Of a DNA stretch of 64,000 nt, positions 5,361 to 11,319 are shown one piece after another. Origin of the DNA: Gaiellaceae bacterium. GTDB lineage: Bacteria; Actinomycetota; Thermoleophilia; Gaiellales; Gaiellaceae. The stretch covers positions 11,363 through 75,362 of the forward strand of contig DATEHY010000050.1 of NCBI GenBank assembly GCA_035279325.1. Reading direction: 5' to 3'. Position numbers and translations under genes: made by a program. The number at the start of each line of letters is the position of its first letter. Positions within the stretch are counted from its first letter, which is position 1. A model generated the notes under the pieces. The model saw only the letters and a program-made list of their open reading frames with translations. It had not been told where the DNA came from and searched no databases.

Positions 5361-6116
5361 ATGGAGCGGGTCGTCGCTCTGGGAAGCAGGGTGCTCCCGC
5401 GCGGTTGGCGGGACTTTGGCCTCCAGCTGGTGATCTGGTTCGGCTTCTACTTCTCGTACCTCGCCGTCCGCCACCTGACCGACCGGGACCCCGCCAAGGC
5501 CGTCGTCAACGGCCTCAAGGTGATCTCGCTCGAGCAGCGTTTCTCGCACCACCTCTTCGAGCTGACGATCGAGCGAATCGCAGACTCGTCGTCCCTGCTG
5601 CTGACCGCTGCGGCCTGGACGTACTGGAACTCCGAGTTCACCGTGATCGGACTGACGCTGCTCTGGGTCTACCTCCGGAGGCACGAGCAGTTCACACGCT
5701 TCCGCAACACCATCCTGCTCGCGAACCTCATCGGGCTGATCGGCTTCGCGCTCGTCCCCACCGCGCCACCCTGGATGTTCCCCGGGCACGGGTTCGTCGA
5801 CGGCGTCAACCACCAGAGCGCGCTGCTGCAGTCACTCGGCAACCCGTACGCGGCGATGCCGAGCCTGCATTCCGCCGATGCGCTGATCGTCGGCTGGTTC
5901 CTCGTGTCGACATCGCGGACGAAGTGGGCGAAGGCGTTGTGGGCCCTCTGGCCCCTTTGGGTGTGGTTCTGCGTGATCGCCACCGCGAACCACTACGTCC
6001 TCGACGTGCTCGCCGGGATCGGAGTCGCGGTCGTGGCCCTGCTCGCGGTCTCGCACGCGCCGCGGCTGTTCGCCCGCCTACGGGCCGCCGGCCCGGCCAT
6101 CGCAAACCTGCTATAG
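5361..6116 (+). CDS. PAP2-superfamily membrane protein (PAP2_3 / inositol-phosphorylceramide-synthase-like)
   Basis: A 251-aa polytopic protein with PAP2 C2/C3-type motifs AMPSLHSADA and ANHYVLDVLAG. Confidence 0.7.
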   Translation: MERVVALGSRVLPRGWRDFGLQLVIWFGFYFSYLAVRHLTDRDPAKAVVNGLKVISLEQRFSHHLFELTIERIADSSSLLLTAAAWTYWNSEFTVIGLTLLWVYLRRHEQFTRFRNTILLANLIGLIGFALVPTAPPWMFPGHGFVDGVNHQSALLQSLGNPYAAMPSLHSADALIVGWFLVSTSRTKWAKALWALWPLWVWFCVIATANHYVLDVLAGIGVAVVALLAVSHAPRLFARLRAAGPAIANLL

Positions 6117-6117
6117 T
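6112..6117 (+). promoter_or_regulatory. Candidate internal -10 box TATAGT upstream of the pgsA1-like gene
   Basis: The sequence reads ctgcTATAGTcgacatagcaggattgcgATG. The box overlaps the PAP2 stop codon and is followed by an AGGA. Confidence 0.3.
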
Positions 6118-6135
6118 CGACATAGCAGGATTGCG

Positions 6136-6801
6136 ATGCTGGAGATGAATACCACCCCCAGGCTCCGCCGCGTCAAGCATGGCTACACGGACGGGGCGCG
6201 TTCGCTCGCCGGCCGCTCGGTCACCAGCCTTGCGCGCACCGGCATCACGCCGAACGTCCTCACGGCGACCGGCGTCTCGCTCTGTCTCGCAGCGGCGGTT
6301 CTCGTGCCGTTCGAGAACCGGGTCGACACGCTGCTCGTCTACTGGCTCGCCGCCGGCGTCTTCGTCGTCGGCTCGCTGCTCGACATCCTCGACGGTGCAC
6401 TCGCACGCGTAGGCGGCAAGGCCACCCCATTCGGCGCCTTCATCGACTCCACGACCGACCGTGTGGGCGAGGGCGCGATGCTCGCCGCGATCGCGCTCGT
6501 CTTTGCGCGGCACAACAAGGACTGGGCCGTGGTGGTCGCAGTCGCGGCCGTCGTCGGCTCGTTCCTCGTCTCGTACACCCGAGCCCGGGCCGAGGCGCTC
6601 GGACTCAAGGGCGACGTCGGCCTGGGCTCGCGCGCCGAGCGTGTGGTGGTCATCACCGCAGGTCTCGTCTTTGGCCCGTGGGGCGGCCTGCCGTGGGCGA
6701 TCGTCGCGCTCGCCGCGACGGCCTGGCTCACGGTCTTCCAGCGCATCCTGCACGTCCGCAAGCAACTTTCCGGAGGCACCAGTGGCAACGACCAACGGTA
6801 G
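6136..6801 (+). CDS. CDP-alcohol phosphatidyltransferase, PgsA1-like (phosphatidylinositol-phosphate synthase type)
   Basis: The signature D-G-x2-A-R-x8-G-x3-D-x3-D is present as [26 protein letters not shown]. It is 221 aa, about the size of mycobacterial PgsA1, and is adjacent to ino1. Confidence 0.8.
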
Positions 6802-7924
6802 GGCACGGCTCGACGACGGCAAGGTCCGCGTCGCGATCATCGGCGTCGGCAACTGCGCGAACTCGCTGCTCCAGGGCGTCGAGTACTACAAGGACGCGCC
6901 GGACGACCAGTTCGTCCCCGGCCTCATGCACGTCAACCTCGGCGGCTACCACGTCCGCGACGTCGAGTTCACCGCCGCGTTCGACGTCGTCAAGGGCAAG
7001 GTCGGCGAGGATCTCGCCGACGCGATCTGGGCTCACCCGAACGACACGATCGAGTTCGCCGACGTGCCGCAGACCGGCGTCAAGGTCTCGCGCGGCATGA
7101 CGCACGACGGGCTCGGCAAGTACCTGTCGCAGGTCGTCGAGAAGGCCCACGGCAAGACGGACGACGTGGTCGGGATCCTCAAGGAGACGAAGACCGACGT
7201 CGTGGTCAACTACCTCCCGGTCGGCTCCGAGGCGGCGACGAAGTGGTACGCCGAGCAGATCCTCGAAGCGGGCTGCGCGATGGTGAACTGCATGCCGGTC
7301 TTCATCGCACGCGAGGACTACTGGGGCAAGCGGTTCGAGGAGAAGGGCCTGCCAATCATCGGCGACGACATCAAGTCACAGGTCGGCGCGACGATCACCC
7401 ACCGCGTGCTCACGTCGCTCTTCCGCGAGCGCGGCGTCCACCTCGACAAGACGATGCAGCTCAACGTCGGCGGCAACTCCGACTTCCTCAACATGCTCGA
7501 GCGCGAGCGGCTCGAGTCGAAGAAGATCTCGAAGACGAACGCCGTCACCTCGATGCTCGACTACGACCTCGGCTCGGGGAACGTCCACGTCGGCCCGTCC
7601 GACTACGTGCCGTGGCTGACCGACCGCAAGTGGGCCTACATCCGGATGGAGGGCTCCTCGTTCGGCGACGTGCCGCTCAACGTAGAGCTGAAGCTCGAGG
7701 TCTGGGATTCGCCGAACTCGGCGGGAATCGTGATCGACGCCGTCCGGCTCTCGAAGCTCGCGCTGAACAACAACGTCGCGGGCGCGCTCGTCGGGCCGAG
7801 CTCGTACCTCATGAAGTCGCCACCGAAGCAGATCGTCGACGACGAGGCCTATGAGCTGACCGAGGAGTTCATTCGCGAGAACGCGCGCGTCGCGACGAAG
7901 CACGAGGCTCCGGCAGAGGTCTAG
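6782..7924 (+). CDS. ino1: myo-Inositol-1-phosphate synthase
   Basis: [41 protein letters not shown] and [22 protein letters not shown]. The GTG start at 6782 overlaps the upstream stop by 20 nt. The track ORF start at 6461 is an Arg/Ser-rich artefact. Confidence 0.92.
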
Positions 7925-7928
7925 AACC

Positions 7929-8765
7929 GTGGAGGCTGCGGGCGGTGCCGGCACGGGAGACGCCGGCACCGCTCGCGATCCTCGTCCGGCCGTGACCGCG
8001 GACCTCGACATCCGTCCCGCCACGTCGCTGTCGCTGGACGAGCGCGCGGCGCTCTTCACCGCGGCGTACGAGGGCTACGCCGTGCCGATGCAGATCGACG
8101 GGGCACGCCTCGAGTGGATGGAGGACAAGTTCGACTTCGACCTCGGCGCGTCCCGGATCGCGTACCGCGACGGCGAGCCGGTCGGACTCGCCAATCTCGC
8201 CGTCCGCCAACGGGAGGCCTGGATCGGCGGCGTCGGCGTGGTCACCGCCGCGCGGCGCGGCGGCATCGGCGAGGCACTGATGCGCGCCGTCCACGACGAG
8301 GCGCGGTCGCGCGGCGTCGAGCGCATCTGGCTCGAGGTGTTCGACACGAACGTCGGCGCTCGATCGCTCTACGAGAAGCTCGGCTACGTCACGCAGCAGG
8401 ACGTCGAGGTCTGGACGCTGCCCGCCGCCGAGGGCGACTCGCCCGGACGCGAGGTCAGCGCGGCAGAGGCGAAGGCGCAGCTGCCGCAGCGGCACGAGCC
8501 GTGGCAGCGCGCCGACGGCACCCTCGCCCGCTACGACGACGTGCGCGGGCTCGTCACCGACACGGGCGCGATGCTGTTCTGCGTCCGCTCGACCGCGCAG
8601 CTGCAGCAGTACGGTGGCGAGCCCGAGCCTCTGCTCCGCGCGCTTCGCACGTTCGGCGACGTCTCCATCCTCAATCTCCCGGCCGAGGATCCCGCCGCGG
8701 CGGTCTTGCGGGAGCTCGGCGGCTCGGTCGTCGTCCGGCAGCACGAGATGCTGCTCGACCTCTAG
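7929..8765 (+). CDS. GNAT-family N-acetyltransferase with an extra C-terminal domain
   Basis: Acetyl-CoA motif VGVVTAARRGGIGEALMRAV...LEVFDTNVGARSLYEKLGY. The start is uncertain; an alternative GTG lies at 7992. Confidence 0.75.
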   Translation: MEAAGGAGTGDAGTARDPRPAVTADLDIRPATSLSLDERAALFTAAYEGYAVPMQIDGARLEWMEDKFDFDLGASRIAYRDGEPVGLANLAVRQREAWIGGVGVVTAARRGGIGEALMRAVHDEARSRGVERIWLEVFDTNVGARSLYEKLGYVTQQDVEVWTLPAAEGDSPGREVSAAEAKAQLPQRHEPWQRADGTLARYDDVRGLVTDTGAMLFCVRSTAQLQQYGGEPEPLLRALRTFGDVSILNLPAEDPAAAVLRELGGSVVVRQHEMLLDL

Positions 8766-8794
8766 CCGAGGCTCGGGCACTAGACTCGATCGAC

Positions 8795-10522
8795 GTGCGG
8801 ATCGCGCTCGTCACGCCGTTTGCCTGGTCGCAACCGCACGACGTGAACGAGCACGTGGACGGGCTCGCGCACGAGTTGCGACGCCGCGGCCACGCGGTCA
8901 CGATCCTCGCGCCGTCGAACCGAGCGCGCGACCTCGCGGCGGGGCGGCGCGCGCTGCTCGGCTCCGTCGACGATCGCGAGCTGATCGCGATCGGCCCCGC
9001 GGTGCCGATCTCCCGGCGCAGCCGGATGGGCGTGCCGGTCGGAGTTCGCGCGAGCCTCTCCCTCGCTGTCGCGAAGGGCGGGTTCGACGTCGTCCACGGC
9101 TTCGAGCCCGGACTGCCGAGCCTTTCGTACCTCGCTCTGCGGGACTCGGCCGCGCTCACGGCGGCGACCTTCTTCTCGGACGAGCGGCTCGGGTATCCGC
9201 CCGGCCGCGCGCAGCGCGAGCGACTGCTCGCGCGTGTCGACGCGCTCCTCGCGACGAGCAAGAACGTCGCGGACGCCGCGGCGGTGCGTTTCCCCGGCCG
9301 CTACGAGCTGGTGCCGCACGGCATCGATCCGGAGCTCTTTGCACCCGGCGAGAAGCGAAAGCTCGTCGTGCTCGAGTGGCGTCAGACCGAGCGGCCGCTC
9401 TTACGCGCGCTCGTCCGCGAGCTTGCCGAGCAGCCGGAGTGGGAGCTCGTGCTGCTGCGCACGCGGGTTCCCGCCTCGCGTCCGGGTGTCTCGCACCGGC
9501 TCCGCGGGCGGATGCGCGTGCGCACCGCGCGTACGGGCGCCGCCCGCGCCGAGTTGTTCCGGGCCGCTTCGATCTTCGTCCCGGCCGCCGAAGGGCTCGC
9601 GCGCCTCGTCGCCGAGGCCCAGACGGCGGGAGTCGCGGTCGCGGCTCCGCCCGGTCGCGCCGAGCAGCCCGAGCTCGCCGCCGCGGAGACGGCGCGGATG
9701 ATCGAGGACGAGACCTTCCGCGCACGCCGGGCCGAGGAGAGCCTCGAGGCGGCGAAGTCCCAGACGGTCGAGGCGCTCGCCGACCGCGTGGAGGAGGTCT
9801 ACGACCGCGTCGCCTCCCGCCGGCGCAGCCGCAACACCGGCCCCAGCCCCGAGGAACGCGACTGGATCGTCGCCGACCTCCACCTTCACACGAGCTGGTC
9901 GCACGACTGCTCGATCGACGTCGACGAGCTGCTCGACCATGCCGAGGCGCAGGGGCTCGGCGCAATCGCGGTCACCGACCACAACGTGTTCGGCGGCGCC
10001 CTCGAGGCGGTCGAGCGCGCGCGCGGCCGCCGCCTCGTGGTCATCCCGGGCGAAGAGGTCAAGACGGCAGACCAGGGCGAGGTGATCGGGCTGTTCCTGC
10101 GGGAGGAGATCCCGCGCGGCATGTCCTTCGGCGAAACCATCGCGGCGATTCGTGCCCAGGGCGGCCTCGTCTACCTGCCGCACCCCTTCGATCGGATGCA
10201 CGCGATCCCGGAACCCGCGACGCTGCACCGCCACCTGGCCGAGGTCGACGTGCTCGAGGTCTACAACGCGCGGCTGCTCTTCGAGGCGTACAACGAGGAG
10301 GCGCTTCGCTTCGCGCGCAAGTACAACCTCACGCCCGGCGCCGGGTCCGACGCACACGTCCTCGCGGGTGTCGGCACCGGCGCCGTCCGGATGCGCCGCT
10401 TCAACGGGCCGGAGGAGTTCCTCGTCTCCCTCCACGACGCGGAGGTGCTGCGCCGCCCGAAGTCGCTCGTCTACCTGCAGGGGCTCAAGTGGGTGGCGCA
10501 GGCGAAGGAGCGTGTGCGCTAG
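8795..10522 (+). CDS. Fusion protein: PimA-like GT4 glycosyltransferase (about residues 1-340) plus PHP-family phosphoesterase (about residues 356-575)
   Basis: The N-terminal part aligns by eye with PimA: VRIALVTPF...HVDGLAHELRRRGHAVTILAP, FDVVHGFEPGLPSLSYLALR, VPHGIDPELF, and E-x7-E as EGLARLVAE. The C-terminal part carries PHP motifs DLHLHTSWSHDC, AVTDHN, IPGEEV, LPHPFD and GSDAH. It starts with GTG at 8795, in the frame of track ORF 8114..10522. Confidence 0.8.
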   Translation: MRIALVTPFAWSQPHDVNEHVDGLAHELRRRGHAVTILAPSNRARDLAAGRRALLGSVDDRELIAIGPAVPISRRSRMGVPVGVRASLSLAVAKGGFDVVHGFEPGLPSLSYLALRDSAALTAATFFSDERLGYPPGRAQRERLLARVDALLATSKNVADAAAVRFPGRYELVPHGIDPELFAPGEKRKLVVLEWRQTERPLLRALVRELAEQPEWELVLLRTRVPASRPGVSHRLRGRMRVRTARTGAARAELFRAASIFVPAAEGLARLVAEAQTAGVAVAAPPGRAEQPELAAAETARMIEDETFRARRAEESLEAAKSQTVEALADRVEEVYDRVASRRRSRNTGPSPEERDWIVADLHLHTSWSHDCSIDVDELLDHAEAQGLGAIAVTDHNVFGGALEAVERARGRRLVVIPGEEVKTADQGEVIGLFLREEIPRGMSFGETIAAIRAQGGLVYLPHPFDRMHAIPEPATLHRHLAEVDVLEVYNARLLFEAYNEEALRFARKYNLTPGAGSDAHVLAGVGTGAVRMRRFNGPEEFLVSLHDAEVLRRPKSLVYLQGLKWVAQAKERVR

Positions 10523-10734: not shown

Positions 10735-11319
10735 GTGACCGTGGCCAACGACGAGATCTACGAGAAGTACCTGCAAAAAGCGATCACCGAGAGCAACGCC
10801 CTCGGCGACGAGCTTGCGCATGCCGCGGGCAGCGCCCGTGTGCCGGTGCTCGGCTCCGGCCACCCGCTCGCCGACGTCTTCCTGCTCAAGTACGCACCGC
10901 AGGCCTCGGAGCTGCAGGAGGGAGTCGCGTTCTACGGCCGCGCCGGCAATGCACTGCTGAAGTCGCTGCAACGACTACGTGTGGACCCCATGGCGATCTA
11001 CGGGACGAACTGTCTCAAGTTCGCGGGCGGCGACGAGGACGAGTCGCGGCCCTTCCTGCTGCGCGAGCTGCACATCGTCCAGCCGAAGCTCGTCGTCGCG
11101 ATGGGCGAGCCCTCCCTCGCCTTCCTGAACGCGGCCCGGTTCCCGCTCGCGCGCGAGCTCGACCTGCTCGAGGGCGAGCTCCAGGAGTACACGCCGACGA
11201 TCCAGGGGCTCGTCACGCCCGACATCGACGAGTCGCTCGACGAGCAGCCGGCGAAGACGGCGTTCTGGAACGCCTTCAAGGTGCTCGGCGAGTGGTGGAG
11301 CCAGACACCTCCGTACTGA
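10735..11319 (+). CDS. Uracil-DNA-glycosylase-superfamily protein (family 4/5-like fold) lacking both canonical catalytic motifs
   Basis: It aligns by eye to family-4 UDGs (FYGRAGNALLKSL, IYGTNCLKF, KLVVAMG). Motif A GE(A/Q)PG is replaced by KYAPQ, and the motif B HP(S/A) position reads TPD. Confidence 0.6.
   Translation: MTVANDEIYEKYLQKAITESNALGDELAHAAGSARVPVLGSGHPLADVFLLKYAPQASELQEGVAFYGRAGNALLKSLQRLRVDPMAIYGTNCLKFAGGDEDESRPFLLRELHIVQPKLVVAMGEPSLAFLNAARFPLARELDLLEGELQEYTPTIQGLVTPDIDESLDEQPAKTAFWNAFKVLGEWWSQTPPY

Follow-up and report, generated by a model that had tools for sequence, protein, structure and literature searches.

The stretch of DNA analysed here (the window; 64,000 nucleotides, G+C content about 70%) was taken from a bacterium of the family Gaiellaceae (class Thermoleophilia, Actinomycetota) and contains a phosphatidylinositol (PI) synthesis cluster of five genes, the last of which encodes a 575-residue protein joining a domain related to the mannosyltransferase PimA to a PHP phosphoesterase domain (Table 1). 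PI is the anchor of phosphatidylinositol mannosides (PIMs), lipomannan and lipoarabinomannan in mycobacteria, and Actinomycetota make it through PI-phosphate (PIP). A preliminary description of this locus, drawn from the sequence alone, had nominated the PHP domain as the enzyme that dephosphorylates PIP to PI. We find that the PHP half and its gene linkage are well conserved, while the donor-site residues of the PimA-like half are largely replaced, and we therefore weigh that proposal here in a modified form.

From the coordinates, it is clear that the five genes lie on one strand and are as closely packed as had been described, including the overlap at ino1 and the short gap before the GNAT gene, and for each neighbour Pfam and NCBIfam agree with the family name it had been given. 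The Pfam matches exceed the gathering scores for PAP2_3 (135 bits), CDP-OH_P_transf (61 bits), Inos-1-P_synth (129 bits) and Acetyltransf_1 (69 bits), and the ino1 product reaches 542 bits with TIGR03450. The translated phosphatidyltransferase carries the full D-x2-DG-x2-AR-x8-G-x3-D-x3-D motif and has PgsA1 of Mycobacterium tuberculosis as its best PDB match (6h53, E 2e-23); its NCBIfam scores with the archaetidylinositol-phosphate (AIP) synthase model (142 bits) and with PIPSynth (129 bits) are both under the equivalog cutoffs of 180 and 170. Synthesis of di-myo-inositol phosphate (DIP) was considered as well and rejected, since the transferase fits the PIP/AIP synthases best and the IPCT/DIPPS model gave only 55 bits; the genome paper of Gaiella occulta reports no DIP genes. 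A scan for promoters and terminators gave no useful result.

The GNAT gene is a variable passenger outside the conserved membership of the cluster. Only 21 of the 80 related loci have it, with unrelated genes in its place elsewhere, for which reason we have rejected a role of its product in the pathway, for example as an MshD-like enzyme.

Table 1. Positions of the features discussed, in the window and in related loci (nt, nucleotides; aa, amino acids; IPC, inositol phosphoceramide; UDG, uracil-DNA glycosylase; GT, glycosyltransferase).
Feature	Location	Strand	Remarks
moaA	4293-5312	+	First gene of the tabulated layout
PAP2_3 membrane protein, AUR1/IPC-synthase-like	5361-6116	+	48-nt gap after moaA; Pfam PAP2_3
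CDP-alcohol phosphatidyltransferase, PIP/AIP-synthase clade, PgsA1-like	6136-6801	+	19-nt gap; Pfam, NCBIfam and PDB match
ino1, myo-inositol-phosphate synthase	GTG 6782 to 7924	+	20-nt overlap with the PIP-synthase gene; TIGR03450
GNAT acetyltransferase	7929-8765	+	4-nt gap; Pfam Acetyltransf_1
575-aa fusion ORF	GTG 8795 to 10522	+	29-nt gap after GNAT
PimA-derived GT-B domain, aa 1-340	8795-9814	+	Sequence, profile and fold match to PimA
Arg-rich interdomain linker, aa 341-356	9815-9862	+	pLDDT 65-76; no secondary structure; least conserved part
PHP + PHP_C domain, aa 357-575, plus stop codon	9863-10522	+	Pfam; proposed PIP phosphatase
Divergent UDG-superfamily protein	10735-11319	+	Pfam UDG 36.6 bits
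Multi-pass membrane protein, 218 aa	11358-12014	+	Right after the UDG-like gene; no Pfam match
Protein of 525-557 aa without Pfam family	L088 5479-7152 (Conexibacter woesei CP001854.1, 816416-838338); L081 5592-7169; L083 5175-6848		Upstream of PAP2_3
GT-C enzymes, GT87 (PimE/PIG-M-like) and PMT_2	L074 5381-6628; L077 6486-7961		In the slot between ino1 and the fusion gene
Canonical GT4	L082 8472-9689	-	Head to head with the fusion gene
LPG_synthase_TM flippase-like gene	L082 7312-8376	-	Beside the canonical GT4
Divergent PHP/PHP_C paralogue	L094 16327-17016	-	24% identity; beside YjbQ

Architecture of the fusion protein

A profile scan of the 575-residue ORF found both of the domains that had been assigned to it by eye, with Glyco_transf_4 at residues 17-180 (61 bits), PHP (PF02811) at 361-427 (44.1 bits, threshold 26.4) and PHP_C (PF13263) at 499-548 (44.5 bits, threshold 21.3). 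The AlphaFold2 model (pLDDT 87.3, pTM 0.83) consists of a GT-B fold and a PHP barrel with the domain borders given in Table 1; alignment A1 was used for this prediction, and a second one (A2, 150 sequences with many fragments) was set aside as too ragged. The G+C content at third codon positions is uniform over the junction (0.91 for the GT half, 0.94 for the PHP half), and at least 570 species-representative genomes encode the fusion at full length, at identities down to 64%, all of them labelled Gaiellaceae, Thermoleophilia or Actinomycetota except for one metagenome-assembled genome (MAG) marked Acidobacteriota. The same full-length architecture is present in thousands of metagenome proteins and in MAGs labelled Solirubrobacteraceae and Thermoleophilia, and it is encoded by the finished genome of Conexibacter woesei, a cultured member of the Solirubrobacterales (CP001854.1, locus L088); full-length forms reach down to 35-50% identity. 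One NCBI MAG protein labelled Gaiellaceae shares 100% identity with the fusion protein of the window. The uniform codon-position composition, together with the occurrence in so many species genomes and in a finished one, led us to reject an assembly or frameshift artefact that joined two unrelated genes. The fusion is authentic, and it is ancient inside the class Thermoleophilia.

The complete set of PHP metal-binding motifs read earlier from the last ~220 residues (HxH, TDHN, GEE, HPFD and GSDAH) is indeed present, and each of the ten residues H363, H365, D371, H396, E421, H463, D466, H469, D519 and H521 is invariant in 80 of 80 Gaiellaceae relatives and kept in the distant orthologues of 35-50% identity as well. 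In a 26-sequence alignment of the family every invariant column falls within the PHP domain, and the ratio of nonsynonymous to synonymous substitution rates (dN/dS) of this domain is 0.067. Its Foldseek matches are TM0559 (2ANU, TM-score 0.70), RNase AM (7UG9 and 9ETK) and PsfC, and its nearest solved relatives are TM0559, whose function is unknown, BAD_1165, RNase AM (TrpH/YciV) and Cv1693. The PHP half is therefore best described as an active-looking phosphoesterase of a distinct subfamily, as judged from its residues and predicted fold.

Given these relatives, the PHP domain could instead hydrolyse phosphate esters of nucleotides or nucleic acids, as enzymes of the TrpH/RNase AM or pAp-phosphatase type do, and owe its position in the cluster to inherited gene order. 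By sequence and fold, BAD_1165, RNase AM, Cv1693 and the PHP domain of PolC are its best relatives, and the NCBIfam matches list a nucleoside-bisphosphate phosphatase family and the RNase RNM family. The equivalog scores, however, are far under the cutoffs (27.9 bits versus 400 for NF041577, and 27.5 versus 375 for NF047791), and what is matched is chiefly the first 70-80 residues of the domain (about 70 in these equivalog models), a part common to all PHP proteins. Two further PHP proteins were seen besides the fusions. One is a divergent PHP/PHP_C paralogue in L094 that lacks the PHPFD motif, indicating that these genomes contain more than a single lineage of the PHP plus PHP_C architecture; the other is a stand-alone PHP protein (P0249) on an 843-bp contig, which offers no gene context.

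For the first ~340 residues, PimA is the best match by sequence, profile and fold, in agreement with the likeness first noted by eye. A phmmer search of the PDB found PimA as the sole GT4 structure (E 4e-12, residues 1-304), and the family profile matched PimA over its full length and both domains with an E-value of 4e-55, while the next GT4 enzymes reached only 9e-21 or worse, mostly over the C-terminal half. In Foldseek, PimA likewise came first (E 1.6e-15, TM-score 0.68), followed by MshA, ManT and BshA, with sucrose-phosphate synthase (SPS, 6KIH) also among the hits. A generic GT4 origin was rejected, since the family profile favours PimA by 35 orders of magnitude. In the window protein Pfam gave no match to Glycos_transf_1, the C-terminal GT half, at E<=0.01. 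Relative to PimA, the clade of the window has lost about 30 residues (β5-α-β6) after the EX7E helix; distant family members without this deletion do match PF00534.

The donor site of PimA allows a residue-by-residue comparison. Gly16, Arg196 and Lys202 of PimA hold the pyrophosphate of GDP-mannose (PMC9883506), Glu282 binds the ribose and Glu274 the mannose, and His118 and the Lys/Glu equivalents are reported to be essential in PimA and ManT. We have counted the states of these positions in 80 Gaiellaceae sequences and, for the wider family, in 25 diverse members. In 80 of 80 Gaiellaceae the Gly16 equivalent is Asp or Glu, the Arg196 equivalent Trp or Leu, and the Lys202 equivalent Pro, Ala or Val (Asp, Trp and Pro in the window), and these three residues are mostly gone from the wider family and from C. 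woesei too. At the His118 position, Phe, Leu, Val, Ser and Ala cover 74 of 80 sequences (Phe in the window), with His outside these five commonest states; His is still found in 16 of the 25 wider-family members. The Glu282 equivalent is Glu in 80/80, and that of Glu274 is Glu or Asp in 53/80 by the HMMER alignment and a gap by MAFFT. The C. woesei protein lacks both Glu of the EX7E motif, and none of the 25 diverse members keeps the complete PimA set. On the acceptor side of PimA, Tyr9 is changed to Phe, Gln18 to Asn, and Arg201 is retained. The canonical GT4 encoded beside the fusion in L082 shows every motif, so that the residue test does discriminate. The GT-like domain is not decaying: its dN/dS of 0.13 indicates purifying selection, and the motifs PHDVN, SRRS, HGFEP and RLGYPP are strongly kept within its Gaiellaceae members.

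A truly bifunctional protein would have an active GT4 domain that glycosylates PI, like PimA, or inositol phosphate, like MshA, with the PHP domain removing the phosphate before or after this step. The structural neighbours (PimA and MshA at the top), the retained equivalents of Glu282 and Arg201, the purifying selection, and the report of both PI and PIMs in Solirubrobacter agree with it. So does a deep clade (P0148), which keeps the Gly16, His118, Lys202 (as Arg) and Glu282 equivalents as well as strong Glycos_transf_1 matches, and whose GT domain may, by these residues, still be active. Across the Gaiellaceae, however, four donor-site residues are replaced non-conservatively, the donor domain of the window clade carries the deletion and is invisible to Glycos_transf_1, and the replaced positions include essential ones. 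The MshA variant of this idea fares no better, as MshA was matched over its C-terminal half only (E 8.5e-18 versus 4e-55 for PimA), with no MshA model among the NCBIfam hits. We consider a bifunctional enzyme to be quite improbable, the least probable of the alternatives weighed here, and a scheme in which the fused PimA mannosylates the PI released by the PHP domain finds no support in this lineage, given the replaced donor residues and the deletion in the C-terminal Rossmann part. The PimA-like half probably no longer uses a sugar nucleotide and probably serves as a non-catalytic recognition module. A second PimA gene was found neither in the window nor in loci L001-L087.

Gene linkage and the candidate substrate

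Context was checked in the 80 related loci, 56 of which have at least 6 kb of upstream sequence. Among these 56, ino1 lies upstream on the same strand in 54, the PIP-synthase gene in 53 and PAP2_3 in 53, so the adjacency to pgsA1 and ino1 on which the first proposal was built holds well beyond the window. It also holds in five deep lineages at 35-50% identity, where the core of PIP synthase, ino1 and fusion is retained among otherwise different neighbours (L081, L083/84, L085, L088, L090/91, L092/93 and L094). A natural split form occurs in L087, where 7 nt separate ino1 from the gene of a 226-residue stand-alone PHP protein, and the UDG-like gene comes next. In rearranged loci the fusion still stands beside lipid-glycosylation genes, namely GT87 and PMT_2 in L074/L077, and GT4 and LPG_synthase_TM in L082. 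The PHP-bearing protein is the sole phosphatase-type gene of the cluster.

In view of the domain identities, residue states, conservation and gene linkage observed here, we tentatively favour, with a confidence just short of even, a fusion protein that acts as a PIP phosphatase and carries a PimA-derived, non-catalytic recognition domain. In such a scheme Ino1 would make inositol phosphate, the PgsA1-like enzyme would join it to CDP-diacylglycerol to give PIP, and the PHP domain would strip the inositol-ring phosphate to leave PI. The N-terminal half would descend from PimA, a peripheral membrane enzyme that recognises the PI head group, and would probably tether the phosphatase to the membrane, to the inositol-phospholipid head group or to the synthase. 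The wider statement, that a PHP-family enzyme performs the PIP-to-PI step in Thermoleophilia and is delivered by a PimA-derived pseudo-glycosyltransferase recognising head group or membrane, is held a shade more cautiously. The Rosetta-stone argument made at the outset thus survives in part: the link to the PHP domain is kept, but its partner is a PimA-derived domain and not a working PimA.

The lipid composition of C. woesei is consistent with this candidate function. PI predominates among the polar lipids of this species, so a PIP phosphatase has to be part of the housekeeping equipment of the class, and an accumulation of PI rather than PIMs fits a PimA-like domain that would no longer transfer mannose. 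By analogy, there is also a chemical precedent, since the PHP proteins most closely related to this domain, those of the 3',5'-nucleoside bisphosphate phosphatase family, cleave a phosphomonoester from a ring, and enzymes of the PHP and inositol-monophosphatase types are known to serve one and the same histidinol-phosphate phosphatase step in different organisms. Our literature search turned up no report that connects PHP proteins with inositol or lipid phosphates, and nothing useful on the lipids of Gaiella.

The upstream PAP2_3 protein had been named as a competing phosphatase. In the PAP2 superfamily, H/H/D motifs without KX6RP fit phosphotransferases such as the IPC and sphingomyelin synthases, not monoesterases. 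For the PAP2_3 protein of the window, the PDB gave yeast AUR1 as the sole match, along the PSLHS...HYxxD motifs, and NCBIfam a weak match to phosphoinositol-dihydroceramide synthase; no KX6RP motif is seen in its sequence. Moreover, it is absent from the clusters of L090, L092 and L094, which keep the PIP synthase, ino1 and fusion genes. On these grounds we have rejected it as the phosphatase; the case for it is weak, and it is probably, to judge from its motifs, a phosphoinositol transferase and an accessory member of the cluster, which would act after PI is made. The acceptor of such a transferase in Thermoleophilia might be ceramide or another alcohol.

Several observations weigh against a PIP phosphatase. 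Among characterised PHP proteins, those most closely related to this domain are phosphoesterases of nucleotides or RNA, and none is a lipid phosphatase; no membrane-anchoring or membrane-binding element has been demonstrated for the fusion; and all named examples of it lie within Thermoleophilia, which amounts to few independent evolutionary events. The interval from ino1 to the fusion has a median of about 1 kb and often contains unrelated or opposite-strand genes, so that the fusion is physically nearer to the UDG-like gene than to ino1, and L082 keeps the fusion and UDG-like genes with no PIP-synthase gene or ino1 nearby. Conservation next to the fusion extends to the UDG-like gene, a presenilin-like membrane protein, a TRAM methyltransferase and YjbQ as well, and much of the synteny is inherited chromosome order. 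The neighbourhood evidence has to be discounted to that extent.

The same context bears on the nucleotide or nucleic-acid alternative, in which the UDG-like protein might be the functional partner. The UDG-like gene follows the fusion in 78 of 80 loci at a median distance of 38 nt, with a stop/start overlap in C. woesei, the L082 arrangement fits this alternative, and the long-range synteny with unrelated genes shows that history, too, has preserved gene order here. In L090/L091, however, the UDG-like gene is lost while the core of PIP synthase, ino1 and fusion is kept. A base-excision-repair pair is also doubtful because the UDG-like protein, a distant relative of family-4 UDG/UdgX (E 9e-7), has KYAPQ in place of the motif A GEAPG and lacks the Fe-S cysteines. 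Nor would such an enzyme explain why a specific PimA homologue is maintained as its partner under purifying selection. We regard this alternative as unlikely, yet as the strongest of those competing with a PIP phosphatase.

A third alternative is that the PHP domain acts on a soluble inositol phosphate, either Ins-3-P from Ino1 or another derivative, as a substitute for inositol monophosphatase (IMPase). The direct linkage to ino1, including the split form in which the PHP protein follows ino1 with no PimA-like domain, would suit such a role, as would the lack of a demonstrated membrane element. PHP-type and IMPase-type enzymes are known as alternatives for one phosphomonoesterase step, filling the histidinol-phosphate phosphatase step in different organisms. 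But the PIP-synthase route uses inositol phosphate directly, so its hydrolysis would compete with the adjacent synthase; the fused domain, derived from a peripheral membrane enzyme that recognises PI, points instead to a lipid head group; and PI is the dominant lipid of C. woesei, while the cluster would otherwise be devoid of a PIP phosphatase. A soluble substrate seems improbable to us, and it ranks behind the nucleotide alternative.

The variable slot between ino1 and the fusion, whose contents differ by genome, contains GT-C enzymes in two loci (Table 1). Enzymes of the GT87/PMT_2 type extend inositol lipids with polyprenyl-phosphate sugars, and their presence suggests that some Gaiellaceae may make PIM-like glycolipids. 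In L082 the fusion is arranged head to head with the canonical GT4 and the flippase-like gene, and this GT4 could, given its intact motifs, be a working lipid glycosyltransferase there. In clusters of the Solirubrobacterales type, the protein of 525-557 residues without a Pfam family, encoded directly upstream of PAP2_3, may be a further cluster member. Downstream of the UDG-like gene, the 218-residue membrane protein is conserved in L085, L092 and L094, with the invariant motifs VD..SV..GPT, LGxxD..F and PALP, and a four-sequence profile of it matched presenilin-2 and presenilin-1 over GLGD...PALP (E 6e-4). By these motifs it looks like a compact bacterial homologue of the presenilin/signal-peptide-peptidase type of intramembrane aspartyl protease.

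Significance and comparison with known systems

The candidate, a PHP domain combined with a PimA-derived one, is testable in a cultivable organism, as the finished C. woesei genome encodes the fusion. If the proposed function is true, the PIP-to-PI step would have a third enzyme family, unrelated to the PgpA-type BT_1525 and the proposed EphE, and the PHP superfamily, a family not earlier linked to lipid metabolism, would extend to lipid head-group phosphatases. The protein would also be an example of a glycosyltransferase that has become a non-catalytic targeting domain, and would make the physical coupling of PIP dephosphorylation to PimA a general principle in Actinomycetota. The mycobacterial enzyme would not thereby be identified, but the idea of a phosphatase attached to PimA would be supported.

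The closest comparison is with PimA itself, the GDP-mannose:phosphatidylinositol alpha-mannosyltransferase (GT4) of M. smegmatis (2GEJ/4N9W). The two share the GT-B fold, with PimA as the best match over both domains, a conservative change of Tyr9 to Phe and Asn and Arg at the Gln18 and Arg201 positions, and the fusion belongs to an inositol-lipid cluster with a PgsA1-type synthase. They differ in that the fusion has Gly16, His118, Arg196 and Lys202 replaced and Glu274 not consistently conserved, has ~30 donor-domain residues deleted, carries a C-terminal PHP domain that PimA lacks, and is probably no transferase.

In architecture, the fusion resembles the GT4/GT20 synthase-phosphatase fusions such as SPS with a domain like that of sucrose-phosphate phosphatase, in which the transferase is active and the HAD-type phosphatase-like domain is often inactive. 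In both cases a GT-B module and a phosphatase module are combined for successive steps on one phosphorylated intermediate, but in the present protein the conservation is reversed: it is the PHP phosphatase that is conserved, whereas the transferase seems to be inactive.

The PHP half shares its fold and metal-binding motifs with TM0559 and with the TrpH/YciV-type proteins (RNase AM, Cv1693 and BAD_1165), the nearest solved relatives, which hydrolyse a phosphate ester on a ring hydroxyl, that of ribose. The TrpH-type proteins match only at the two ends of the domain, in chains ~70 residues longer, whereas the fusion has a compact PHP plus PHP_C unit that scores far below the cutoffs of their families, is joined to a PimA-like domain, and lies in a context of lipid synthesis and not of RNA turnover.

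That the PIP phosphatase is unassigned, as had been stated at the outset for Actinomycetota, is not true of all bacteria. A July 2026 preprint still calls the actinobacterial enzyme 'as-yet unidentified', mycobacteria included, and proposes for the latter EphE, an alpha/beta-hydrolase predicted to bind PimA (bioRxiv 10.64898/2026.07.15.738315), while BT_1525 fills the step in Bacteroides; the parallel remark on the MshA pathway holds, the literature still naming MshA2 only as 'a phosphatase'. The EphE proposal is similar to ours in coupling a hydrolase to PimA as the missing PIP phosphatase, through a predicted complex there and a covalent fusion here. EphE, however, is an alpha/beta-hydrolase and not a PHP protein, and its PimA is a separate, active enzyme; both candidates are predicted.

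BT_1525, a PgpA-family protein, is the PIP phosphatase of Bacteroides thetaiotaomicron, whose mutant accumulates PIP (Heaver et al. 2022, PMC9246714). Its function is known from that mutant, in contrast to the inferred one of the fusion, and its family is different: Pfam and NCBIfam gave only GT4 and PHP families for the fusion, with no match to PgpA, so the fusion, if it is a PIP phosphatase, would be a non-homologous one. The proposed reaction, PIP to PI, is the same, and in each case the cluster also encodes synthases for PIP and for inositol phosphate and an enzyme of the inositol-phosphoceramide-synthase type. Taken together, the Gaiellaceae cluster mirrors the Bacteroides inositol-lipid cluster, with a relative of phosphoinositol-dihydroceramide synthase, a PIP synthase and a myo-inositol-phosphate synthase, and it has the PHP protein where Bacteroides has BT_1525.

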